Shown: positions 2,360 through 14,883, counted from the first letter of the whole stretch. The stretch is 63,368 nucleotides of DNA, filler included, from Actinomycetota bacterium (GCA_009886115.1; 6 parts of 6 records of this genome joined end to end with filler, not necessarily neighbours in it); one strand, 5' to 3'. A program made the numbers and translations. The notes: generated from the sequence alone by a model not told the origin.

Positions 2360-2588
2360 CGTTCTCCCGGTCGGTCGACGTTGAGCGCCGGTGATGGTAT
2401 CGACGGGGTCGGCCCGCGGCCACCGACCCCGAATCGGGTACGTCCAGCGTGCGCTCGATGCGCGACGCAGCCCAGGGGACGTCCGACACGACACCGCTCC
2501 GTTCTTTGCGTCCACGGTCATCCCTGGAGCGGCCTGAGACACAAAGAAGCGGGTGCAGTCGGCCATCGCGGTCCGGCATGATGTGTCG

Positions 2589-4028
2589 ATGGCTGAGGCC
2601 GTGCGGAGCGACGACCAGCGAGATCCCGAGCCGTTCGATGCTGTGGTCATCGGCGGAGGTGTGGTCGGCACGGCCGTCCTCCGGTCCTTGTCGCGCTCGG
2701 GGTTTCGGCGCGTGGCCCTGGTCGAGGCCGCGCCCGACATCGGAGCCGGGACGAGCAAGGCCAACACGGCGATCCTCCACACCGGCTTCGACGCCACGCC
2801 GGGCACGCTCGAGGCGGCGCTGGTCGCTCGGGGCTACCGATTGCTCGGCGACTACGCCGCGGCGACGGGGATCGCCCTCGAACGCACCGGAGCGGTGCTC
2901 GTGGCGTGGGACGACGAGCAGCTCGAGCGGCTGCCCTCCCTGCACGAACGGGCCGAGGCCAACGGCTACCGCGAGTGCCGGCGCCTGAGCCGAGGCGAGG
3001 TCTACGGGCTCGAGCCCCACCTGGGCCCGGGAGTCCTTGGCGGCATGTCGGTGCCCGGCGAGGCCATCATCGACCCGTGGAGCCCGGTGTTCGCCTTCGC
3101 CGCCGAGGCGATGCGCAACGGCGCGCAGGTCATGCGATCCCTGCCGGTACTGGCGATCACGAGTGGCGGCCCCCACGGCAGCCGCTGGGCGATCGAGACG
3201 CCGAGCCGGGTGCTCACGACCGACTGGCTCGTCAACGCGGCCGGGCTGCGCTCCGACGAGATTGACCGGATGATCGACACGGCGACCGGGCGCGGGGTGG
3301 GCGGCGTGCGCAGCGGAGCGTTCACGGTGACACCCCGCCGGGGCGAGCTGATCGTGTACGACAAGCTCGCCCGTCCCCTGGTGAACCACATCGTGCTCCC
3401 CGTGCCGAGCGCGTCGACCAAGGGTGTGCTGGTTTCCCCGACCGTGTTCGGGAACGTGATGGTCGGGCCGACCGCCGAGGACATCACCGACAAGGACGAC
3501 CGATCGACCACGGCGGCCGGTGTGGCTGCGCTCGTCGCGTACGCCCGGCGCATCATCCCGGACTTGGCCGGCGAGGAGATCACGGCCACGTACACCGGGC
3601 TGCGGGCGGCCACCGAGCATGCCGACTACCAGATCGTCGTCGACCGCGAGCGGCGTTACGCGTGCATCGGCGGGATCCGCTCGACCGGTCTCACGGCCAG
3701 CTTGGCCATCGCCGAGCATGTCGTCGCCGAGATGGGCGCAGGCGGTGAGCGATCTCCCGGCGAGCTGGCCCCACCGCCGCGGATGGCCAACCTGGGTGAG
3801 GCGACGACCCGGCGCTACCAGACCTCCGGGTGCGGGCCGATCGTGTGCCACTGCGAACGGGTGACCCGCAGCGAGATCCTCGAAGCGATGGCCGGTGAGC
3901 TCCCTCCCGTCGACCTCGACGGCCTACGCCGGCGTACCCGGACCCTGGCCGGTCGGTGCCAGGGCTTCTTCTGCCTCGCCGACGTGACGTCGCTGTTCAC
4001 CTCGTCCCCCGTCCGGGCGTCGCATTGA
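2589..4028 (+). CDS. FAD-dependent oxidoreductase (GlpA/LhgO-like) with C-terminal BFD-like [2Fe-2S] domain
   Basis: VIGGGVVG, TSKANTAILHTGFD, CHCERVT..GRCQGFFC. Confidence 0.9.
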   Translation: MAEAVRSDDQRDPEPFDAVVIGGGVVGTAVLRSLSRSGFRRVALVEAAPDIGAGTSKANTAILHTGFDATPGTLEAALVARGYRLLGDYAAATGIALERTGAVLVAWDDEQLERLPSLHERAEANGYRECRRLSRGEVYGLEPHLGPGVLGGMSVPGEAIIDPWSPVFAFAAEAMRNGAQVMRSLPVLAITSGGPHGSRWAIETPSRVLTTDWLVNAAGLRSDEIDRMIDTATGRGVGGVRSGAFTVTPRRGELIVYDKLARPLVNHIVLPVPSASTKGVLVSPTVFGNVMVGPTAEDITDKDDRSTTAAGVAALVAYARRIIPDLAGEEITATYTGLRAATEHADYQIVVDRERRYACIGGIRSTGLTASLAIAEHVVAEMGAGGERSPGELAPPPRMANLGEATTRRYQTSGCGPIVCHCERVTRSEILEAMAGELPPVDLDGLRRRTRTLAGRCQGFFCLADVTSLFTSSPVRASH

Positions 4029-5401
4029 GCAGCCCGACCTTCGACGTGGTGGTCGTCGGCGGTGGCCCGTCGGGCCTGGCCGCGGCGACCGCGCTGCGCC
4101 AGCAGGGTGCGGGACGGGTCGCGGTGCTCGAACGCGAGCGCGACGCCGGCGGGACGCCACGCCACAGCGCCCACACCGGGTTCGGGGTGCGCGACCTCCA
4201 TCGAGTGATGAGCGGCCCTCGCTATGCCTCGACGCTGGTGGCGCGGGCCCGGCAGTGGGGCGTCGACCTCCTGTGCGCCACGACGGTCACGGGCTGGGCG
4301 TCCGGCGAGCCCCGGACGGGCGACGCGATCCGTGCGGGGGGCTGGACGTCCGGCGGTACCGCGGCGGGCGACGCGATCAGCGACTCCGACGACGCCGGGC
4401 CCGCGGGTCACGCCCCAACGAGCACGGGCGGGCAACGCCTCACGATCGCCAGTGCCGACGGTCCGGGCGAGATCACGGCGTCGGCGGTCGTGTTGGCCAC
4501 CGGATGTCGCGAGCGCCCGCGGGCGGCCCGCGCGGTTGCCGGCGATCGCCCGGGGCGGGGAGTCCTGACCACGGGAGCCTTGCAGCAGTTGGCGATGAAC
4601 GCGATGACGCAGGCACAAGTAGGCCGCCGTGCCGTGGTGGTAGGCGCCGAGCACGTGTCGTTCTCAGCGGTCATGACCCTGGCGCATGCCGGATGTCGGA
4701 CGGTGGCGCTGGTCACCGAGCACCGTCGCCACCAGACCTTCGCGACGGCGCGCGTCGGCGCGGCCCTCCGGTGGCGGGCGCCCGTCCACACGAGCTCGCG
4801 GGTGACCGCGATCATCGGCCGGCACGGCACCGTCGAAGCGGTCGAGATCACCGAAATCGGCACCGCCCGCGTTCGGCGGATCGAGTGCGACACGGTCGTG
4901 TTCAGCGGCGACTGGATTCCCGATCACGAGCTGGCCCGCATCGGCAGGCTGACGATCGACCCCGGGTCACGCGGCCCTGTCACCGACCAGGGCGGGCACA
5001 CGTCTCGCGAGGGTGTCTTCGCCGTGGGGAACCTCGTGCATCCGGCTGAGGCGGCCGACGTGTGCTCCCTGGCCGGACGGGCCGTGGCCCCGGCCGTCGT
5101 GGCGTATCTGAGGGGCGGGTCCTGGCCCGCGGCTCCCGTCGCCATCGTCTGCGATGCGCCGCTGCTGTGGGTGGCTCCTGGCGCGATCACGCTCGGGCTC
5201 GGACCGCCGGGGCGTCACCGGCTCATCGCTCGAGTCGACCAGCTCGTGCGGTCGGCGCAGCTCGTGGTGGAACAGGACGGGCGGCTCCTCGACCGCCAGC
5301 GCCTCGGACGGTTGGTGCCGACCCGTCCGGTCGAGATCGACGCCGGCTGGATGGCCGGCGTCGACGCCGCTGCCGGTCCCGTCACCATGCGCCTGCGCTA
5401 A
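4025..5401 (+). CDS. FAD/NAD(P)-dependent pyridine nucleotide-disulfide oxidoreductase family protein
   Basis: TTG start overlapping upstream stop; VVGGGPSG, ATGCRER, TSREGVFAVGN; carries a low-complexity insertion of about 40 aa. Confidence 0.85.
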   Translation: MSSPTFDVVVVGGGPSGLAAATALRQQGAGRVAVLERERDAGGTPRHSAHTGFGVRDLHRVMSGPRYASTLVARARQWGVDLLCATTVTGWASGEPRTGDAIRAGGWTSGGTAAGDAISDSDDAGPAGHAPTSTGGQRLTIASADGPGEITASAVVLATGCRERPRAARAVAGDRPGRGVLTTGALQQLAMNAMTQAQVGRRAVVVGAEHVSFSAVMTLAHAGCRTVALVTEHRRHQTFATARVGAALRWRAPVHTSSRVTAIIGRHGTVEAVEITEIGTARVRRIECDTVVFSGDWIPDHELARIGRLTIDPGSRGPVTDQGGHTSREGVFAVGNLVHPAEAADVCSLAGRAVAPAVVAYLRGGSWPAAPVAIVCDAPLLWVAPGAITLGLGPPGRHRLIARVDQLVRSAQLVVEQDGRLLDRQRLGRLVPTRPVEIDAGWMAGVDAAAGPVTMRLR

Positions 5402-5493
5402 CCCGTCCCGCCTCGTCCCGTGACCCTCCGCCTGCCCTCACCCGTCCCGGGCATCACTGCCAGGGGTCGATCGTAGGGGCCCTACCCGGTCGG

Positions 5494-6435
5494 TCACGGG
5501 AAGGCGATGACGAACCGGCCGCGGGCGCCGCCGGCCTCGAGGCGGCGATGGGCCTCGGAAGCAGCCGAGGCGTCGATCACGGCCGCCACTCGCAAGCTCA
5601 GCGCCCCGGCCTCGACCTGAGCACGGAGCCGGTCGAGCAGGTCGGCCCGGCGGTCGTACTCACGCACCCAGGCGGTGTGGAAGGTGATGGTGCGCTCGCC
5701 GGTTCCCGCCCAGCCCCGTACCGAGGCGTACGCGCCGCCGTCTCTGATGGCGCTCACGACGAGCTCGTTCTGCACCGACCCGTCGGCGAGGCCGTCGACG
5801 CCTCCCGGGCAGGCGGCGAGGATGCTCGCCGCGACGTCATCGCCGCGGGGCACCACGATGTCGGCACCCAGCCTGCGCACGAGCGCCTCGTCGACGGCCG
5901 ACGCATCGGCGACGACGCGCAATCCGTCGGCCTTGGCCAGCTCGACGACGTATCCGCCGTAACAGCCCGCCGCGCCCGTCACGGCGAGGGTCTGGCCCGG
6001 CCGCAGCGCCAACTGGTCGAGCGACAGGCGAGCCGTGAGCCCGTTCATGGGCAACGTCGAGGCTTCGGCGTGGCTCGACCCGACGGGAGCCCGAGCCACG
6101 GCGTCGGCCCACAGCACGAGGCTCTCGCGGTAGGCGCCATGACTCGCCTTGGGGATCACCATGGCCATGACGGCGTCGCCCACCGAGAGGTCGGTCTCGG
6201 TGCCGTCGCCGATCTCGTCGATCACGCCCGCCGCGTCCATACCCGGGATGTACGGCGGGGGATCCTTGGCGAGCGCCGCAGCCCGCGATCCGATGCGGTG
6301 ATGGGTGTCGGTGGGGCTCACCGCAGCCGCGTGCACCCTGATGCGCACCTGTCCAGGACCGGCGTTCACCTCGTCGAGCTCGACGAGACGCAGCACCTCC
6401 GGCCCACCGAACTCGACGACCCCGACTCCACGCAT
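5494..6435 (-). CDS. NADP-dependent MDR-family (quinone) oxidoreductase
   Basis: [27 protein letters not shown]. Confidence 0.9.
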
Positions 6436-6548
6436 GGCTTGCCCCCAGGCCGGTCGCGACCCCCGCGGGTCTGCGTTGGAGCCAAGCTTGGCGCACTCGC
6501 CGATGCGATGTGTTGCCGCCCGCTGAGGGCAGGCGTGAGACTCGGGAC

Positions 6549-7595
6549 GTGCCCACCGAAGACATGGCGTTCCTCGACCTGTTCGACGATTCCCCCGAGG
6601 CGCTGTACGAGCTCTTCGAGGCCCGGGGTTGGGGCGACGGCCTGCCGTTGGTGGCCCCGACCGAGGATCGGGTCGCCGCCATGCTGGGGGCCTGCGCCGG
6701 TCGCGACCCTGACGAGGTCGTGGCCGTGCTCGCACCCCGGTTCGGCAAGGCCACCCGGCGCTCGATCGCCGTCAACGCCGTGCTCGCCGGATGCCGGCCC
6801 GAGTGGATGCCCGTGCTGGTGACGGCGATCCGGGCGCTGGGTGTGCCCCGGGTGAACCTCCGGGGCGTGAACGCCACCACCCACCCCGTGTCGGTTTTGA
6901 CGATCGTGCACGGCCGAGCCGTCGACGATCTCGGCTTCAACAGCGGCCTGGGCGTGTTCGGCCCCGGCAACCGGGCCAACGCCACGGTCGGGCGAGCCGT
7001 GCGCTTGGTGTTGCTCCACGTCGCCGGGGCGTCTCCGGGGACCGGCGATGCGTCGACCCAGGGGCAACCGTCGAAGTACACCTACTGCGTCGGCGAGAAC
7101 GTCGCTGCGTCGCCCTGGGGCGGCTACCACCGCAGCGCCGGTGTCGACGCCGAGTCGGCCGTCACCGTCCACTGCGGCGAGAACCCCCACAACTTCCACG
7201 ACATGGAGTCCGACGAACCGGCCGGCATCCTCGAAAAGGCCGCGTCGGCCATGGCGTCATTGGGGATGAACAACGCCTGTATCTCCGAGGGTGAGTTCTT
7301 CGTGGCGCTGTGCCCCGAGCACGCAGCCACCATCGCCGCCGCCGGTTGGTCTCGAGCCGACGTGTCGGCGTACCTGTACGAGCGGGCCCGCCTGCCGGCG
7401 TCGGCCTTCCGCGAGGCCTTCGCGAATCGGCGCTGGCGCCCGTGGATGCACTCCGTGCCCGATGACCATCTCCTGCCCATGACCGACAGCCCCGACAACG
7501 TCAAGGTGTTCGTCGCCGGCGGCGCCGGCAAGCACTCGTGCGTCATCCCGTCGTGGGGCGTGACCACGTCGGTCACGCTGGCCCTCGAACCGTGA
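6549..7595 (+). CDS. Conserved hypothetical protein, probable partner of the UGSC-type selenoprotein
   Basis: Intact ORF with GC3 bias; motifs GWGDGLPLVAPT, NATTHP, GNRANATVGRAVRL, QGQPSKYTYC, GGAGKHS. Confidence 0.85.
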   Translation: MPTEDMAFLDLFDDSPEALYELFEARGWGDGLPLVAPTEDRVAAMLGACAGRDPDEVVAVLAPRFGKATRRSIAVNAVLAGCRPEWMPVLVTAIRALGVPRVNLRGVNATTHPVSVLTIVHGRAVDDLGFNSGLGVFGPGNRANATVGRAVRLVLLHVAGASPGTGDASTQGQPSKYTYCVGENVAASPWGGYHRSAGVDAESAVTVHCGENPHNFHDMESDEPAGILEKAASAMASLGMNNACISEGEFFVALCPEHAATIAAAGWSRADVSAYLYERARLPASAFREAFANRRWRPWMHSVPDDHLLPMTDSPDNVKVFVAGGAGKHSCVIPSWGVTTSVTLALEP

Positions 7596-7633
7596 GCTCC
7601 CCCGGGCCCCCGGGCCCGCCTCGGCCTACGGAA

Positions 7634-7672
7634 CATCGCAATCATCGCAATCATCTCGATCGTCTCGATCAT
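7634..7672. repeat. Degenerate 9-nt tandem repeat (ATCGCAATC / ATCTCGATC) upstream of the UGSC gene RBS
   Basis: atcgcaatc atcgcaatc atctcgatc gtctcgatc. Confidence 0.7.
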
Positions 7673-7695
7673 TCATTGGTCGCAAAGGAGAAGCT

Positions 7696-8220
7696 GTGAT
7701 TCGCATCCTGTCCCCCGAAGGTGACGTCGGAACCCCGCCGGCCGAGTTGGCTCCGGCCCCGACCGTCCTGACCGGTCGCCGGATCGTCGTGCTCGACAAC
7801 GGAAAACCCAACGCCCGCTTGGTCATGGAGCACGTCGCCCGTCGTCTCGCCGAGCGGACGGGCGCCGTGGTCGGCACGACGGTGGCCAAGCGGGGCGGCG
7901 CCGCCACGCCCTCCGACGACGACGAGCTCGCCGCGGTTCGAGCCAGTGCCGATCTCGTGCTCACGGGATCGGCCGATTGAGGATCGTGCACGTCGTGGAG
8001 TGTCCACGACCTCGTCGAGCTGGAGAAGAGCGGTATCCCGACCGTCGTCGTCACCACGACGCACTTCGAGACCCTCACCCGAACGGTGGCATCGAGCTTC
8101 GGTCTGGCCCGAGCCCGAACTGCGGTGATGGAACACCCGTTGGGCGGCACGGCTGAACACCTGCTGCTCGCCCGGGCCGACGCCATCGTCGACCGGGTGC
8201 TCGAGCTCCTGACCACCTAG
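7696..8220 (+). CDS. UGSC-family selenoprotein, 174 aa, Sec at TGA 7978-7980
   Basis: AAGGAG RBS and GTG start; frame continues past TGA as D-U-G-S-C-T-S-W-S-V-H-D..LEKSGIPTV..EHPLGG to TAG 8218-8220, 12 nt before the next gene; hairpin after the TGA. Confidence 0.85.
7992..8010 (+). promoter_or_regulatory. Putative bacterial SECIS hairpin
   Basis: GTCGTGGA-GTG-TCCACGAC perfect 8-bp stem starting 11 nt after the in-frame TGA, with GU in the loop. Confidence 0.7.
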
Positions 8221-8232
8221 CGCTGGCGAGGA

Positions 8233-9180
8233 ATGCCCATGAGAGCCGTGAGGAACACCACCGACGGGATCAAGGTGGTGCAAGTCCCGTCCCCCGAGCC
8301 GGCGCCCGGGAGCGACGGCGTTCGCATCAGGATCCGTAGCGCCAGCATCTGTGGCACCGACCTCAACATGCTCGCCATGGGGCCGGCCGACTACACGATC
8401 GGCCACGAGTTCGGCGGCGAGCTGCCCGACGGCACGCCGGTGGCCATCGAGCCCATCGCCCCCTGCCACGAGTGCGACCAGTGCCGGGCCGGGGTCTCGA
8501 ACCGGTGCCGGAACTTCACGAACTACGGGATCTTCTGGGACGGCGGCCTGGCTGACGAGATCATCGTCGACCCCCACTGCCTCGTTCCCTTGCCCCGGGC
8601 GCTCCCGGTGGCCAACGCCGCCTTGTGCGAGCCGGCATCGGTGGCCTTGCACGGCATCCGGCGGGCGTCGACCCAGGGTGGCGAGCGGGTGGCGATCGTC
8701 GGCGGAGGCTCGATCGGCCTGCTCGCCGCGGCGGCAGCTCGACGTCTCGGCTGCGAGGTCGACGTGGTCGCGCGGCATCCGGCCCAGCTGGCCGCGGCCG
8801 AGAAGATCGGCGTGGGTCGCTCGACCAGCGGCGAGTACGACGTGGTCGTCGATGCTGCCGGATCGGCGTCGGCGGTGGCCGCCGCGTGTGACCTGGCTCG
8901 CCCGGGAGCCCGGCTCGTGCTCCTCGGCGTGTACTTCGACATGGTCCCGCTGCCGGGCACGACCTCGCTCGTCAAGGAGCTCACGATCCTCCAGTCGATG
9001 GCGTACTGCCGTCACGCCGGCGGTCGCGACTTCGACAACGCGGCGATCATGTTGGCCGAGCAGCCCGAGATCGCCGAGGCCATCGTCACGCACCGCTTCG
9101 GTCTCGACGATGCCCCCGAGGCCTTCCGGGTCGCTGCCGACCGGGCTGCCGGCGCGATCAAGGTCGTGCTCGAGCCGTGA
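8233..9180 (+). CDS. Zn-dependent alcohol dehydrogenase (MDR family)
   Basis: ICGTD, GHE, CHECDQC..NRC, VGGGSIG. Confidence 0.92.
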   Translation: MPMRAVRNTTDGIKVVQVPSPEPAPGSDGVRIRIRSASICGTDLNMLAMGPADYTIGHEFGGELPDGTPVAIEPIAPCHECDQCRAGVSNRCRNFTNYGIFWDGGLADEIIVDPHCLVPLPRALPVANAALCEPASVALHGIRRASTQGGERVAIVGGGSIGLLAAAAARRLGCEVDVVARHPAQLAAAEKIGVGRSTSGEYDVVVDAAGSASAVAAACDLARPGARLVLLGVYFDMVPLPGTTSLVKELTILQSMAYCRHAGGRDFDNAAIMLAEQPEIAEAIVTHRFGLDDAPEAFRVAADRAAGAIKVVLEP

Positions 9181-9232
9181 TGTCGGAGCCGAGGGCGTTG
9201 GAGTCGAGGGCGACGAGCTGGGGAGGGAACTG

Positions 9233-10315
9233 ATGGCTGGTACGTGTCACGCCGCGGTGTTCACGGGCGAGGGGGCGTTCGAGGTTCGCGAGTTCCCGAT
9301 CCCCGACCCTCCGCCGGGCGGCGCGGTGTTGCGCACCGAAGCCGTCGGCCTCTGCGGCAGCGACATCGCCCAGTTCCACGGCACGAGGCTCACGCCGAGC
9401 TCGATCTTCCCGACGATTCCCGGTCACGAGATCGTGGGGCGCATCGAGAAGCTCTCACCCGAGGCGGCCGCGTCCTGGCGCGTGCGCGAAGGCGATCGGG
9501 TGGCCGTCGACGAGGTGCTCGTCTGCGGCACCTGCCTCGGCTGCGCCGCTGACGAGATGTGCCATCGCTTGAGGGTCTACGGCTACGAGTTCTCGGCTGA
9601 CGAGGCCCCGTACCTCTTCGGCGGGTACGGCGAGTACATGGTGCTGCTGCCCAACACCCGTCTGTACAAGCTTCCCGACGACATCCCGGCCGACGAGCTC
9701 ACCCTGTTCGAGCCTCTGGCCAACTCCATGAACTGGGTGGGCTGCATCAGGCCCGGCGACACGGTCGTGGTGCAAGGTCCGGGCCATCAGGGGCTCACGT
9801 GCGTCGTTGCCGCCAAGGCCGCCGGTGCCGGGCGCATCATCGTCACCGGAACCTCCGACGACCGGCTGCGCTTCGCTGCGGCGCTCGCCATCGGTGCCAG
9901 CGACACCATCGCCGTCGATGTCGAGAACGCCGTCGAGCGGGTGGGGGAGATCACCGGCGGACGGATGGCCGACGTGGTGATGGATGTCGCCTCGGTCACC
10001 CAGACGGTCAACCTGGCGCTCGAGCTGGTGCGGGCCCGCGGTCACGTCGTGCTCGCCGGGCTGAAGCACTTCACCCCGAACCCGGGCCTCGTGACCGACT
10101 GGATTCCCTTGAAGGGACTGACGATCCACGGTGGCTGCGGCTTCACCCCCGACTCGATGCAGCGCGCCGTCGATCTTCTCGCCAGCCGGTCGGTCGACAC
10201 CTCCACGTTGCTCGGCGAGGTCTACACGCTCGCTGAGATCGACCGGGCCATGCAGGTGCTGGCCCGTACCATTCCCGGCCACGACGCGGTCCGCGTCGGG
10301 CTGAAGCTCAGCTGA
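9233..10315 (+). CDS. Zn-dependent alcohol dehydrogenase (MDR family)
   Basis: LCGSD, PGHE, CGTCLGC..C, QGPGHQG; GGAGG RBS before ATG 9233. Confidence 0.92.
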   Translation: MAGTCHAAVFTGEGAFEVREFPIPDPPPGGAVLRTEAVGLCGSDIAQFHGTRLTPSSIFPTIPGHEIVGRIEKLSPEAAASWRVREGDRVAVDEVLVCGTCLGCAADEMCHRLRVYGYEFSADEAPYLFGGYGEYMVLLPNTRLYKLPDDIPADELTLFEPLANSMNWVGCIRPGDTVVVQGPGHQGLTCVVAAKAAGAGRIIVTGTSDDRLRFAAALAIGASDTIAVDVENAVERVGEITGGRMADVVMDVASVTQTVNLALELVRARGHVVLAGLKHFTPNPGLVTDWIPLKGLTIHGGCGFTPDSMQRAVDLLASRSVDTSTLLGEVYTLAEIDRAMQVLARTIPGHDAVRVGLKLS

Positions 10316-10333
10316 GCTACGGAAGGCGCTCCC

Positions 10334-11131
10334 GTGAGCATCGAGATCGACCTGCAGGGCAAGACCGCGATCGTCACCGGTGCCGGCGCGGGCATCGGCC
10401 GTGAGATCGCCCGTTGGCTCGCCCGTTCGGGAGCCGCCGTCGCGGTCAACGACATCCGTCCCGAGCCCGCCCGGGCGGTCGTCGACGAGATCGTGGCCGA
10501 GGGTGGACGGGCGATGGTCGCGGTCGCCAACGTGCGCGACGAAGCCGAGGTGGCGGCGCTCGTGGGCCGGGTTGTCGGCGAGCTCGGCGCGCTCGACATC
10601 CTCGTCAACAACGTGGGGATGCACGCGGGGCGCGCTGCCGTGCCGCTGGTGGGGATCGACGCCGCGCACATCCGTGATCTCCTCGAGCAGAACGTGCTCA
10701 CCACGATGCTCTGCGCGATCGCCGGGGCCCGGGTGATGATCGAGCAGGGGCGCGGTGGGGTGATCCTCAACGTCTCATCAGGTGAGACGACGCGCCCATC
10801 TCCTGGGCTGGAGCCCTATGCCGCCGCGAAGCACGCCGTGAACCACCTCACCTGGACCATGGCCGTCGAGTGGGGCCCGCACGGCATCCGGGTCAATGCC
10901 ATCGCCCCGGGTACCACGCTCACCGAGACCGTGCGGCCGGTGTTCACCGACGAGCACGTCGCCAACATCGTCGCCAGCACGCCCTTGCGGCGCATGGTCG
11001 AGCACGACGAGCTGGCCCGGCTCTCGGTCTTCCTCTGCTCCGACCTGGCCCGCTGCATCACCGGCCAGCTGATCCTGGCCGACGCCGGCGCCCACCTGTC
11101 GCGCTCGCGCCCCCGGAACCTCACCGAGTGA
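10334..11131 (+). CDS. Short-chain dehydrogenase/reductase (SDR)
   Basis: TGAGAGIG, LVNNVG, YAAAK, IRVNAIAPG. Confidence 0.93.
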   Translation: MSIEIDLQGKTAIVTGAGAGIGREIARWLARSGAAVAVNDIRPEPARAVVDEIVAEGGRAMVAVANVRDEAEVAALVGRVVGELGALDILVNNVGMHAGRAAVPLVGIDAAHIRDLLEQNVLTTMLCAIAGARVMIEQGRGGVILNVSSGETTRPSPGLEPYAAAKHAVNHLTWTMAVEWGPHGIRVNAIAPGTTLTETVRPVFTDEHVANIVASTPLRRMVEHDELARLSVFLCSDLARCITGQLILADAGAHLSRSRPRNLTE

Positions 11132-11174
11132 CCGACCGCCCCCCATCGTCGCACCCGGCCCCGCACCCGGCCCC

Positions 11175-11247
11175 GCATGTGGCGGGGGCCGGCATGTGGC
11201 GGGGGCCGGCATGTGGCGGGGGCCGGCATGTGGCGGGGGCCGGCATG
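11175..11247. repeat. 17-nt tandem repeat GCATGTGGCGGGGGCCG x4 after the operon end; can pair with upstream CCGGCCCCGC
   Basis: Four identical units with no spacers. Confidence 0.9.
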
Positions 11248-11300
11248 CGAAGAACGCGGGAACCTGTGAACCCGTTGGGCGAGTCCCGACAGGGGTGCCC

Positions 11301-11769: not shown

Positions 11770-12105
11770 ATGACGACACTTGCTTCATTGCTCGAGCATC
11801 TCTACGAGGGCGACGTGGTCGACACCGCCGACATCGCACGGGTCAGCGACACCAACCCGCGCAGTGTCAGTCGCTGGAAGGCGGAGGCCGCTGTTCCACG
11901 ACGCGACGCTGAGGAGCGACTGCTCGAACTCCGGGCCGTCGTCGACCTCGCCCGGAGAGTGATGCGTGACAGTGCAGCCCGTTTCTGGTTGCGCTCTCCC
12001 AACCCTGACCTTGGCTACGAAAAGCCACTCGACCTCATCGCCCAAGGCCGGTACCAACGCGTCATCGACCTGCTGCTGGCGCTGGCGGAGGGTGTGACCG
12101 CCTGA
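11770..12105 (+). CDS. Xre/MbcA/ParS-type antitoxin (HTH plus DUF2384-like domain)
   Basis: DIARVSDTNPRSVSRW HTH; FWLRSPNPDLGYEKPLDLI. Confidence 0.9.
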   Translation: MTTLASLLEHLYEGDVVDTADIARVSDTNPRSVSRWKAEAAVPRRDAEERLLELRAVVDLARRVMRDSAARFWLRSPNPDLGYEKPLDLIAQGRYQRVIDLLLALAEGVTA

Positions 12106-12106
12106 C

Positions 12107-12637
12107 ATGCCGGTGTTCGACGCAAGCAAGCTCGCCACGCTGGCCGGGACAGCGCTCTCGGTGGCCGGCTTCCGGAATCAGGCGAGCGGCTTCGATCCAC
12201 GAAGCGGTGATGGGGCCCGTCGCTTCGGAGGTCGCTTCAACCCGCCACACAGCTTCCCAGTGATCTACCTGTGCACGACTCGGCCGTGCGTTGTCGCCGA
12301 GTTGACACGACAAGCTGATCGGCAGGGCCTGACGGTCGACGACCTGCTACCCCGCGAGATCTGGCGAGTCACCGTCGAGCTCACGAAGGTGCTCGACCTC
12401 ACCCACCGCGAGACCTTGGAGGCACTCGAAGTCGATCCAGCCGATCTCATTCGCGACGACCTCCAGTTCACCCGCGAGATCGGCGAGGCTGCGCACGAGC
12501 ACCGCTTTCAAGCGATCCGGTCGGCGTCGGCGACCGGCGTCGACGAAGTCGTGGGGATCATGCCCGAGAATCTCGCTGGTGCCGTGCTGCATGCAGAACT
12601 CGTCCAGGAGTGGAGGACGGCATCAGAACTCCCTTGA
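12107..12637 (+). CDS. RES-domain toxin
   Basis: GDGARRFGGRFNP..VIYL..VAE..IRSASA; 1 nt after the antitoxin stop. Confidence 0.9.
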   Translation: MPVFDASKLATLAGTALSVAGFRNQASGFDPRSGDGARRFGGRFNPPHSFPVIYLCTTRPCVVAELTRQADRQGLTVDDLLPREIWRVTVELTKVLDLTHRETLEALEVDPADLIRDDLQFTREIGEAAHEHRFQAIRSASATGVDEVVGIMPENLAGAVLHAELVQEWRTASELP

Positions 12638-12977: not shown

Positions 12978-14477
12978 TCAGGGTGCGATGGTGCCGGGGA
13001 GCGTCAGGCGGAGGCCGGCGGCGTCGGCGATGCCGGGGTCGGTGTAGGCGTTGGACGCGCGCATCTGGGTATCGGCGTCTTGGAAGTTGGTCCAGTTGAT
13101 CGCGGTGGTCCAGCGTTGTGCGAAGTCGAGGACGGCGGTGATGGAGTGGCCTGGGTCGGCGCCGTTGGATATGGCGTTGAGGGCGACGAGGTAGTTGGTG
13201 CGGTACACGGTCGGGATGATGAAGCGGACCTGTCCGGCTGCGCTGAGTTCCGCGTTGGCGGCGAGTCGGGCGACGCGGCCGTTGCCGTCGACGAAGGGGT
13301 GGCACTCGGTGATCAGGAGCATCATCGCTACCGCTCGTGCGAAAGGGTCGACGAGCGGGTTGAGCTGGTCGAATCCGCGCCGGAGTGTTCCCTCGACGAG
13401 CTCGGGGCTAACGAAGGGGTACCCGCCGGCGTAGTTGGCGACGGTCTTGAACTTCCCGGGCTGCTTGTCGGGCCTGGCTGCCATCAAGACGGCGTGACGT
13501 TCACAGAGCGCATCGAGCAGCTGGTCGCTGGTCGCGGGGACGCGGCGTCGTTCGACGGGGTCGACAGCGAGACGGTACGTCGCAGCGACGTCGTGCGCGT
13601 CCTCTGGGCGTTCTGTTGATACGAGGCCGTCGACAGCGATTCGTCGGGCCTCGTCGACGCCGAACTCGGTGCCTTCGATGTAGTTCGAGAAGTACGCCTC
13701 GAAGAAGGGGAGCCACTCCCAACGGGTGCTCGGACCGAGCGTGGGTCGTGGCGTTGGTGCTCGTGACTGGAGCACCTCGACGAGCGCGGCGAGCATTGTG
13801 ATTCGGTGGGCGTCGTAGGGCGTGCCGGCGAGGCGTGCGGCGAGACGGTGAGATGTGGGTGTGACGGGACTGGTGACCGACCCCAACACGGCGGTCAGTC
13901 GATTGCGTACTGCTCCGACCGCCTCGGGCGCGAATGACGAAGCGATCACGTCGAGCTGAGCCAAGACGGTGAGGATGCGGCCGGCGCCTCCCGTCCTGGC
14001 CAGGTCGTCGATGCGGTCCTCGACCACATCGGTGCCTGCACGGTGGCGAGGTGGTCGGCCTCGCAGGTGGACGTTCTCCACGAGCGCTCGTGCTGGACCC
14101 GACACGAACAGTCCCGCCGGCATCGGCATGTCACCGGGCAGTCGCTCCGGCCCGATGACCGGGACGATCACGACACCGGGGAGCCGCAATGGTGATCTGC
14201 GTGGGGGATCGGGGGAGGCGACGAAGAGCTCTCCGGAGGAGGGCCGACCGCCGGCGAGGGCGGTGCGGCCGCAGAGCACACCGCCGGGAACGACGCTAGC
14301 GACGATCTCGTAGAGATGCTGGTTGGCGACCTGTTCTGGGGGAAGGGTCGCGCCGACGGCGTACAGCCCCGGGGCGAGACGGATCGCCTTGCCGCGGCCA
14401 GCGAGACGACTCAAGTGAGCCCGGTTCGTCGCGGAGGCCCTCTCGAGGATCCCGTGGGGTGGCGTGGCGACATTCAT
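12978..14477 (-). CDS. Fic family protein with AbiEi-like N-terminal region
   Basis: Canonical HPFVDGNGRVAR; FFEAYFSNYIEG; N-terminal LSRLAGRGKAIRLAPGLY; start uncertain. Confidence 0.88.
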   Translation of the reverse strand: MNVATPPHGILERASATNRAHLSRLAGRGKAIRLAPGLYAVGATLPPEQVANQHLYEIVASVVPGGVLCGRTALAGGRPSSGELFVASPDPPRRSPLRLPGVVIVPVIGPERLPGDMPMPAGLFVSGPARALVENVHLRGRPPRHRAGTDVVEDRIDDLARTGGAGRILTVLAQLDVIASSFAPEAVGAVRNRLTAVLGSVTSPVTPTSHRLAARLAGTPYDAHRITMLAALVEVLQSRAPTPRPTLGPSTRWEWLPFFEAYFSNYIEGTEFGVDEARRIAVDGLVSTERPEDAHDVAATYRLAVDPVERRRVPATSDQLLDALCERHAVLMAARPDKQPGKFKTVANYAGGYPFVSPELVEGTLRRGFDQLNPLVDPFARAVAMMLLITECHPFVDGNGRVARLAANAELSAAGQVRFIIPTVYRTNYLVALNAISNGADPGHSITAVLDFAQRWTTAINWTNFQDADTQMRASNAYTDPGIADAAGLRLTLPGTIAP

Positions 14478-14701
14478 CGGGGAAATGGCTCCGAGCACAG
14501 TGGTGCGAGCAACGTTTGATGAGAATACCACGCGGTGAGGCGACATTCCGTAGCAATAAGGCCTCCATTTCGGTTGTCGCTCGCGCGGGATACGGCATGC
14601 CGGCTTCGGCCAGTTCCCACGGTGCTGATGGGCGGTTACTCGCGGAGCGCGGCCATCGGCTCGATGGCGACGACACGGGTCGCTTCGATGAGATTCGATA
14701 G

Positions 14702-14745
14702 CTGATGAGGATGAGGTCGCACGTTCGATTCTTGCTCGCCCCACA
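14702..14745 (+). pseudogene. 3' half of tRNA-Ile(GAT), probable att-site relic
   Basis: CTGATGA anticodon loop, GAGGTC variable region, GCACG-TTCGATT-CTTGC T arm (1 mismatch), acceptor-like 3' strand; no 5' half or D arm. Confidence 0.65.
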
Positions 14746-14883
14746 ACACGGACAACCCGCAGGTCAGAAGCATCGACATTCCGGCCTTGCTCCTGTGTGA
14801 GGGTGAGCACAGTGCTTCGGAACCGATCTCTTGCTTGTTTCGCATCGGCTCGGAACGTCGCCCTTGTTGGCGAAGGCGCCGGT

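Follow-up and report, generated by a model that had tools for sequence, protein, structure and literature searches.

A UGSC selenoprotein and its adjoining partner as a candidate two-part selenoenzyme in an Actinomycetota genome

In the Grd and Prd systems of Stickland fermentation, the selenocysteine (Sec) of selenoprotein B acts on the substrate, and GrdE and PrdA are the pyruvoyl proproteins. Here, we analyzed a stretch of 63,368 nucleotides from an Actinomycetota bacterium (GCA_009886115.1), hereafter the window, which consists of several contigs joined by runs of N and whose first 11,300 bases form one contig. On this contig, a gene of the selenoprotein family UGSC follows the gene for a larger protein, which we call the partner. 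We observed that the conserved unit is this UGSC-partner pair, nearly always adjacent or fused, and not the row of five genes in which it lies in the window. The pair probably forms a selenoenzyme of two parts, which is fed by thioredoxin and has a composite active site. Its core features are the following:

6564 (ATG) or 6549 (GTG) to 7595, + strand: partner protein gene ('Unknown_1' domain), 343 or 348 aa, in no named family.
7696 to 8220, + strand: UGSC selenoprotein gene, 174 aa, with Sec95 in ADUGSC (residues 93-98); PF24696 match of 152.8 bits.
7978 to 7980, + strand: in-frame TGA, very probably the Sec codon, as judged from orthologue codons and the Sec machinery of the genome.
7992 to 8010, + strand: candidate selenocysteine insertion sequence (SECIS) hairpin, GUCGUGGA-GUG-UCCACGAC, from the comparison of TGA and Cys forms.

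The read-through protein lies above the PF24696 cut-off of 25 bits and, with C substituted for U, scores 122.1 bits against NF041046, just below its cut-off of 125. It has the features by which the UGSC family is recognized: a U/C-G-S-C motif with an in-frame TGA, and some orthologues with Cys instead. Zhang and Gladyshev (PLoS Genet 2008, PMC2398784) described a 'UGSC/Unknown_1' fusion, shown only in ocean reads, and the sections of their paper that treat it call the UGSC fold 'likely Trx-like' and assign no function. The Unknown_1 alignment printed in their supplementary Figure S1A contains the partner's stretch AVNAVMAGC.PE...NATTHP; by this resemblance, Unknown_1 is the partner of the window, and the linkage was thus already published, in a supplement, without follow-up. 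The window differs from the published fusion in having separate genes, the partner followed by UGSC, in a predicted fold that is flavodoxin-like, and in belonging to a genome with eight such pairs. A 2026 review (PMC13188914) places UGSC, where it names it, among the families of uncharacterised function, and the literature passages that name UGSC assign it no function, one paper speaking of a protein of unknown function. An original prediction, made from the DNA of the window alone, had taken UGSC for a named family with no assigned reaction and the locus as uncharacterised. The first point agrees with these sources. The second holds in that no function is given in them, but not for the pair itself, which has been in print as a fusion since 2008.

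We compared 74 genomic loci, defined as loci that hold a close relative of the partner. UGSC adjoins the partner in 66 of them (63 downstream on the same strand, three convergent), and three loci end at a contig break. Among 301 sampled genomes of the phylum, UGSC occurs in 19 and the partner in 22, and the partner adjoins UGSC in all 19. Three genomes appeared to hold only the partner (G087, the congener G101 and G281); a recheck of G087 and G281 revealed that G087 carries a divergent fusion with UGSC at 30.5 bits.

The two proteins also occur as a single chain. The fusion scan drew on the 150 best partner cluster representatives, of which 69 of at least 400 aa were scanned and 81 shorter ones left out. 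UGSC is carried by 51 of these 69 long homologues (E <=0.001), in three cases under the Pfam cut-off of 25 bits. Twenty of the 51 have a whole, uninterrupted UGSC domain at the N-terminus; three of these were inspected, and two read C-G-x-C and one C-G-A-S. Another 27 start with the UGSC part past the TGA and are Sec-type fusions shortened by gene callers. In the other four the partner comes first and ends exactly at the TGA.

The genome from which the window comes holds eight UGSC genes, with one TGA each, and eight partner genes, which together make eight adjacent pairs in both gene orders. The seven further pairs lie on G000 contigs C179, C154, C44, C193, C149 and C101 (loci L114-L120); all have the TGA, and each has its own hairpin after the UGA. 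In the contig C193 pair (L117:7649-9358), both proteins are encoded in one Sec-containing fusion frame. No sampled genome exceeds these eight UGSC copies, the others having one to three. The paralogues share 25-41% identity among the UGSC copies and 27-47% among the partner copies, and on this sequence comparison the eight pairs are old. The presence of eight deeply diverged pairs in one genome suggests an enzyme family with different substrates. The original prediction had treated the small Sec protein and the upstream protein as one unit and proposed a survey of neighbourhoods and fusions as a check; adjacency, fusions in both orders, the eight pairs and the co-fold of a homologue described below all agree with it.

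The Sec site itself has recognizable relatives. The GrdB profile was built from nine Sec-containing genes and the PrdB-like profile from six U-x-x-C genes, all taken from published genomes of this phylum; the underlying tally, 19 of the 301 genomes, also counts the unpublished G148 and G268, whose sequences were left out. In profile-profile comparison (hhalign), UGSC matched GrdB at 92.8% (E 3.9e-7), with UGSC residues 86-173 lying on GrdB 336-418 and Sec on Sec. It matched the PrdB-like profile at 88.5% (E 2.7e-6), again Sec on Sec and with Cys98 on the second Cys. The control comparisons gave 0.8% (E 0.07) for UGSC against the partner and 0.3% (E 0.18) for the partner against GrdB. On these alignments, the Sec site of UGSC is homologous to that of GrdB and PrdB-like proteins. 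The likeness that the original prediction had pointed to is thus recovered, for the C-terminal half only.

In GrdB and PrdB, as in UGSC, Sec follows a beta strand at the start of a helix, and E-x-x-G-I-P-T-V and a P-x-G turn come after it; PrdB-like relatives carry U-x-x-C, as UGSC does. The GrdB and UGSC genes each directly follow the gene of a larger partner, and in all three control genomes the GrdE/PrdA family PF09338 lay directly upstream of grdB. In contrast, GrdB has about 330 N-terminal residues that find no counterpart in UGSC, and the partner shows no likeness to the proproteins GrdE and PrdA. The same search that succeeded in the control genomes found neither GrdE/PrdA (PF09338) nor GrdA (PF04723) in the window's own genome, which is 95.6% complete. 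Because of this, and because no named family includes the partner, this is no Grd/Prd system, in line with the earlier placement outside the classical grd/prd context. The setting of UGSC here is oxidative catabolism, whereas that of Grd/Prd is Stickland fermentation.

Some of the relatives collected have features of their own. In L105, from another member of the Actinomycetota, the GrdB frame continues for about 839 residues past the Sec codon, with no second stop, into thiolase-like sequence, and could be a GrdB-GrdC fusion. L111 also continues for 839 residues, but only through further in-frame TGA codons. The Actinomycetota loci L121-L126 encode small PrdB-like selenoproteins with U-P-x-C, whose open reading frames (ORFs) end at the TGA in six-frame searches.

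The partner is a widespread protein outside the named families. It matched nothing in Pfam or NCBIfam; no Pfam family was common to more than two of 66 partner sequences at E <=1, and its 30 nearest Atlas clusters shared none either. Among 8000 scored candidates, 5188 homologues were found at E <=0.001, and the family makes up 4980 clusters at 50% identity. The best 120 homologues are 67-100% identical and come from several phyla, and every one with a source name is called hypothetical. The residues D30, G31, C82, T111, R149, C180, E183, W190 and H258 are nearly invariant. The AlphaFold2 (AF2) model of the partner has a predicted local distance difference test (pLDDT) score of 93.9 and a predicted template modelling (pTM) score of 0.93. 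With this model, Foldseek gave a best template modelling (TM) score of at most 0.26, for class I fumarate hydratase and cyclic amide hydrolases, and the best of 48,161 chains compared by VIA-align reached Z 6.6, over 79 residues, with none at 8 or above. These matches led to no fold assignment for the partner.

The AF2 model of UGSC (pLDDT 91.0) consists of five alternating strand-helix units, with Sec95 directly after strand 87-93 and at the start of helix 96-111. Its best structural matches are flavodoxin-like proteins, among them flavin mononucleotide (FMN) reductases, azoreductases and CheY-like receivers, with Foldseek TMq values of 0.45-0.53 and, by VIA-align, Z up to 10.8 and a root-mean-square deviation of 3.0 over 125 residues. 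Such an arrangement is common, with 216 chains at Z >=8, and the matches are generic. The predicted fold of UGSC is flavodoxin-like, but UGSC does not resemble these proteins in sequence and shows no signs of a site for flavin. The structural matches listed for UGSC include no thioredoxin-fold entry, although absence from that list excludes nothing.

Models also place the two proteins in contact. A co-fold without alignments was made of P0134, a natural fusion, in place of the window's own pair; its two domains, of which the partner domain has 46% identity to that of the window, gave an interface score ipSAE of 0.68, against 0.00 for the best control. Of 78 solved complexes 51 reach this mark, as do two of 108 mismatched pairs. 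The runs share at least 94% of their contacts, and the pLDDT is 88 for the partner chain. In window numbering, the predicted interface comprises C95, G96, S97, S99, S100, W101 and H104 of UGSC, and N108-H112 (NATTH), P63-K67 and G159-G166 of the partner; all invariant UGSC residues lie at it. The co-folding check suggested with the original prediction thus sets the C/U-G-S-C motif against the partner's NATTH loop in the model. This supports UGSC-partner binding within the family, and from it we infer that the two proteins also touch in this organism.

Further fusions of the partner suggest an electron source. A pyridine-nucleotide-disulfide oxidoreductase (Pyr_redox_2) domain set occurs in 17 of 27 partner homologues of 610-2000 aa, five of them named thioredoxin reductase in the source, and the homologue P0130 has a CAVC motif. 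P0227 joins the partner to the catalytic beta chain of ferredoxin-thioredoxin reductase (FTR). Because partner-reductase fusions recur, thioredoxin-type reductases are the likely electron source. The U-x-x-C motif and these fusions are also what the pair shares with thioredoxin-dependent reductases, which run a disulfide or selenenyl-sulfide cycle; the pair differs from them in having no named catalytic domain and in the predicted flavodoxin-like fold of UGSC.

Thus, our model suggests that the functional unit is a two-protein enzyme, which many other organisms have as a single fused chain. The 345-residue partner would form most of the substrate site. UGSC would contribute Sec at the helix start of a flavodoxin-like domain, a remote relative of the Sec-bearing C-terminal half of GrdB and PrdB. 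The Sec95 selenolate may attack or reduce the substrate where UGSC meets the conserved NATTH loop of the partner. The adduct would then be resolved by Cys98 of U-G-S-C to a selenenyl-sulfide, which a thioredoxin-type reductase would re-reduce. The two Zn-dependent alcohol dehydrogenases (ADHs), the short-chain dehydrogenase/reductase (SDR) and the divergent oxidoreductase around the pair would be lineage-specific genes of the same small-molecule pathway and not electron donors. The chemistry of the pair is presumably reductive.

Besides the distance between the co-folded homologue and the window's own pair, several observations weigh against this model. The resolving Cys is not universal, since P0170 has CGAS, and the partner's C180 is Ala in P0134. 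Five of the 74 loci have room yet show no UGSC beside the partner, also by hidden Markov model profile search, and in G281 the four partner matches fall into two long frames (663 and 755 aa), and no UGSC was found. Co-variation of the eight pairs is weak (r 0.32; 266 of 5000 permutations reach it). The GrdB likeness is confined to UGSC residues 86-173, the C-terminal half; UGSC scores 17.9 bits against TIGR01917 (E 0.0011), whose cut-off is 602.2, and PF07355 (GRDB) matches none of 32 UGSC sequences at E <=1. PDB searches, with the partner by sequence and by profile and with the GrdB and UGSC profiles, found no relative of any of the three, and the GrdB profile found no solved chain.

The best-surviving alternative is that UGSC is a dedicated redox carrier, in the role of thioredoxin or GrdA, which re-reduces a disulfide between C82 and C180 of the partner. 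The partner would then be the whole enzyme, and Sec would never contact the substrate. U-x-x-C is indeed a classical redox motif, two cysteines of the partner are nearly invariant, and the partner's fusions to thioredoxin reductase (17 of the 27 long forms) and, once, to the FTR beta chain mean that a reductase can sit in the chain without UGSC. Nevertheless, UGSC shares a homologous Sec site with selenoprotein B, whose Sec acts on the substrate. The second Cys is absent from some forms (P0170), and Ala replaces C180 in P0134. The placement of all invariant UGSC residues at the predicted interface is, moreover, more than a transient carrier needs. We regard this alternative as possible but clearly less probable than the composite active site.

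A different reading would take the pair as a non-redox enzyme (an isomerase, racemase, lyase or hydrolase), with Sec or Cys95 as nucleophile or acid-base residue. It would accommodate the forms that lack the resolving Cys, and hydrolases do accompany the pair: Amidohydro_2 and Amidohydro_3 are frequent neighbours, with 16 loci each for three clusters, and two clusters of 654 aa (P0273 and P0274), 69% identical to the window's partner, fuse it to Amidohydro_2. The recurrent fusions to thioredoxin reductase and FTR are, however, hard to explain without a redox cycle, and the residue at position 95 is Sec in 58 of 65 orthologues and Cys in only seven. Thus, we consider a non-redox enzyme unlikely. 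As a side observation, Amidohydro_2 also neighbours the pair in many Myxococcota loci and on own-genome contig C44.

Returning to the composite selenoenzyme, a wider proposal may be made tentatively, and we would not expect all of it to hold. UGSC and its partner might represent an undescribed selenoenzyme class, a thioredoxin-fed aerobic counterpart of the Stickland selenoprotein-B reductases in which an unrelated 345-residue subunit replaces the pyruvoyl proprotein. Such enzymes might reductively cleave carbon-heteroatom bonds in many catabolic pathways, with eight substrate-specific isoenzymes in this genome. Three results make the long-orphaned UGSC a testable two-subunit enzyme: its obligate partner, the kinship of its Sec site with that of selenoprotein B, and the thioredoxin-type electron input. 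Cys-type orthologues occur in cultured Streptomycetaceae (Yinghuangia, Embleya and Streptodolium), with partners 61-64% identical to that of the window; therefore, testing needs neither Sec expression nor an uncultured organism.

The pair lies among the following genes and sites:

5494 to 6426, - strand: divergent medium-chain dehydrogenase/reductase (MDR) gene, PIG3/quinone-oxidoreductase-like, with ADH_N and ADH_zinc_N_2; TIGR02824 match of 93.3 bits, under the family cut-off.
7634 to 7672, no strand: 9-nt tandem repeats in the 100-nt spacer between partner and UGSC (Tandem Repeats Finder).
7686 to 7691, + strand: Shine-Dalgarno-like AAGGAG, read from the sequence, ending 4 nt before the GTG start of UGSC.
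8233 to 9180, + strand: Zn-dependent MDR dehydrogenase 1 (ADH1), with ADH_N and ADH_zinc_N.
9233 to 10315, + strand: Zn-dependent MDR dehydrogenase 2 (ADH2), with ADH_N and ADH_zinc_N.
10334 to 11131, + strand: SDR oxidoreductase, with adh_short; adh_short_C2 match of 188.3 bits.

The layout agrees with the coordinates given in the original prediction: five + strand genes within 6549-11131, separated by 100, 12, 52 and 18 nt, and a divergent quinone-oxidoreductase-like gene. That prediction had proposed the five genes as one operon and the dehydrogenases as a possible source of reducing power. Taken further, the five genes would be a single dedicated pathway, dependent on selenium, with the dehydrogenases renewing the reductant of the Sec enzyme. 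The spacing is tight, and no terminator-like or sigma-70-like site was found in 5400-11300. An SDR orthologue (>200 bits) stands beside the pair in 35 of the 74 loci, the only third gene that recurs. One RNA library, which possibly holds DNA, yielded three short near-identical contigs that match the partner gene, UGSC and the start of ADH2; as the library may contain DNA, they support no claim of expression or co-transcription, and a single transcript is not demonstrable from them. The comparison between loci speaks against a five-gene unit. The closest relative, L009 (90% identical), has the divergent oxidoreductase, the pair, ADH1 and SDR but no ADH2. An ADH1 orthologue (48-91% identity) follows UGSC in 10 of the 74 loci, and a relative of ADH2 (46-54%) is nearby in 18, mostly on the opposite strand.

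The seven other own-genome pairs sit among quite different genes, namely luciferase-like monooxygenases, acyl-CoA synthetases, P450s, CoA-transferases and amidohydrolases. At other loci the pair is accompanied by amidohydrolases, a GcvT-like protein, a GMC oxidoreductase, a 2-hydroxyacid dehydrogenase, thiolase, acyl-CoA dehydrogenase, PhyH, TauD and luciferase-like enzymes. Because neighbours vary across loci and paralogues, the dehydrogenases form the pathway context of a subfamily and stand outside the enzyme. The five genes thus do not hold as a conserved unit, and nothing in the survey favours the dehydrogenases as the source of reducing power, for which the fusions to thioredoxin reductase and FTR point elsewhere; we rate the dedicated five-gene pathway as very unlikely. 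Guesses at the substrate from the neighbours (quaternary amines, lactones, acyl-CoA) were dropped, as these differ too much between lineages and paralogues.

We then turn to the decoding of the TGA. In orthologues from other genomes, the codon at this position is TGA in 58 of 65 and TGC in seven, and the frame is conserved past it in all 65, which places read-through beyond chance. The seven Cys forms all come from cultured or sequenced Streptomycetaceae. The window's own genome carries selB (293.7 bits), selA (458.7), selD (398.4) and a tRNA-Sec with anticodon TCA, and a SECIS-like hairpin follows the UGA, as in bacterial selenoprotein genes. This hairpin has an 8-bp stem, begins 11 nt past the UGA (+15 to +33) and overlaps the SWSVHD codons. 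The full stem of eight pairs is present in 53 of 59 TGA forms, the window included, and in none of the seven Cys forms; the other six TGA forms have U-U at the outermost pair. Double-sided changes from GC to AU occur at two stem pairs, in two sequences and one sequence. Folding energy tells against the hairpin, as the window's 56-nt stretch gives z -0.27 and 70 of 200 shuffles fold as well or better; because shuffles fold equally well, support for the hairpin rests on the comparison across sequences.

A 4,257-nt contig from DNA run X2 of another study covers 6927-11200, without a listed difference at the TGA, and an RNA-library contig matches 7964-8167 with 0 differences. Thus, the TGA at 7978-7980 very probably encodes selenocysteine, and the original reading of a TGA-containing UGSC-family protein is borne out. 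A broken gene, with the TGA as a real stop or as an error of sequencing, can practically be dismissed: gene callers do stop at the TGA, and many database entries start or finish there, but the TGA/TGC split of the orthologues, the TGA-only hairpin, the agreeing contigs and the complete Sec machinery contradict this reading.

Several details of the locus complete the description. For the partner, the ATG at 6564 is the favoured start, because the database twin P0003 has 343 aa. The spacer repeats are made of the 9-nt units CATCGCAAT and ATCATCTCG, within an otherwise very G+C-rich contig, and the run X2 contig is missing one unit, at 7634. ADH1, ADH2 and SDR reached no specific equivalog cut-off in NCBIfam. 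An Rfam scan of 5000-11300 gave nothing above chance (best E 0.46). The 3' end of the operon is outside view, because the contig stops at 11300. Close to that end, in 11130-11300, translations show GRHVAGAGMWRGPACGG twice, which suggests a direct DNA repeat at the assembly break.

On the upstream side, the divergent MDR gene at 5494-6426 has an 88% orthologue in the same position only in L009 among the 74 loci, and it is local context only. Further upstream, the gene for a DAO-type flavin adenine dinucleotide (FAD) oxidoreductase with a BFD-like [2Fe-2S] domain (2553-4025) shares 70 nt with that of a Pyr_redox_2 protein (3956-5398), an arrangement that, in our estimation, resembles opine or D-hydroxyproline dehydrogenase subunits. 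As candidates for the reductase of the pair these two genes were rejected as local context, because they are syntenic only in L009, one of the 74 loci.

Beyond the first contig, two ORFs of 111 aa and 176 aa lie one base apart in 11770-12637. The second has a GGRFNPP motif and may be a RES-domain toxin, with its neighbour as an Xre-like antitoxin. On the - strand, at 12978-14810, a 610-aa ORF contains HPFVDGNGRVARL, presumably a Fic-domain motif.

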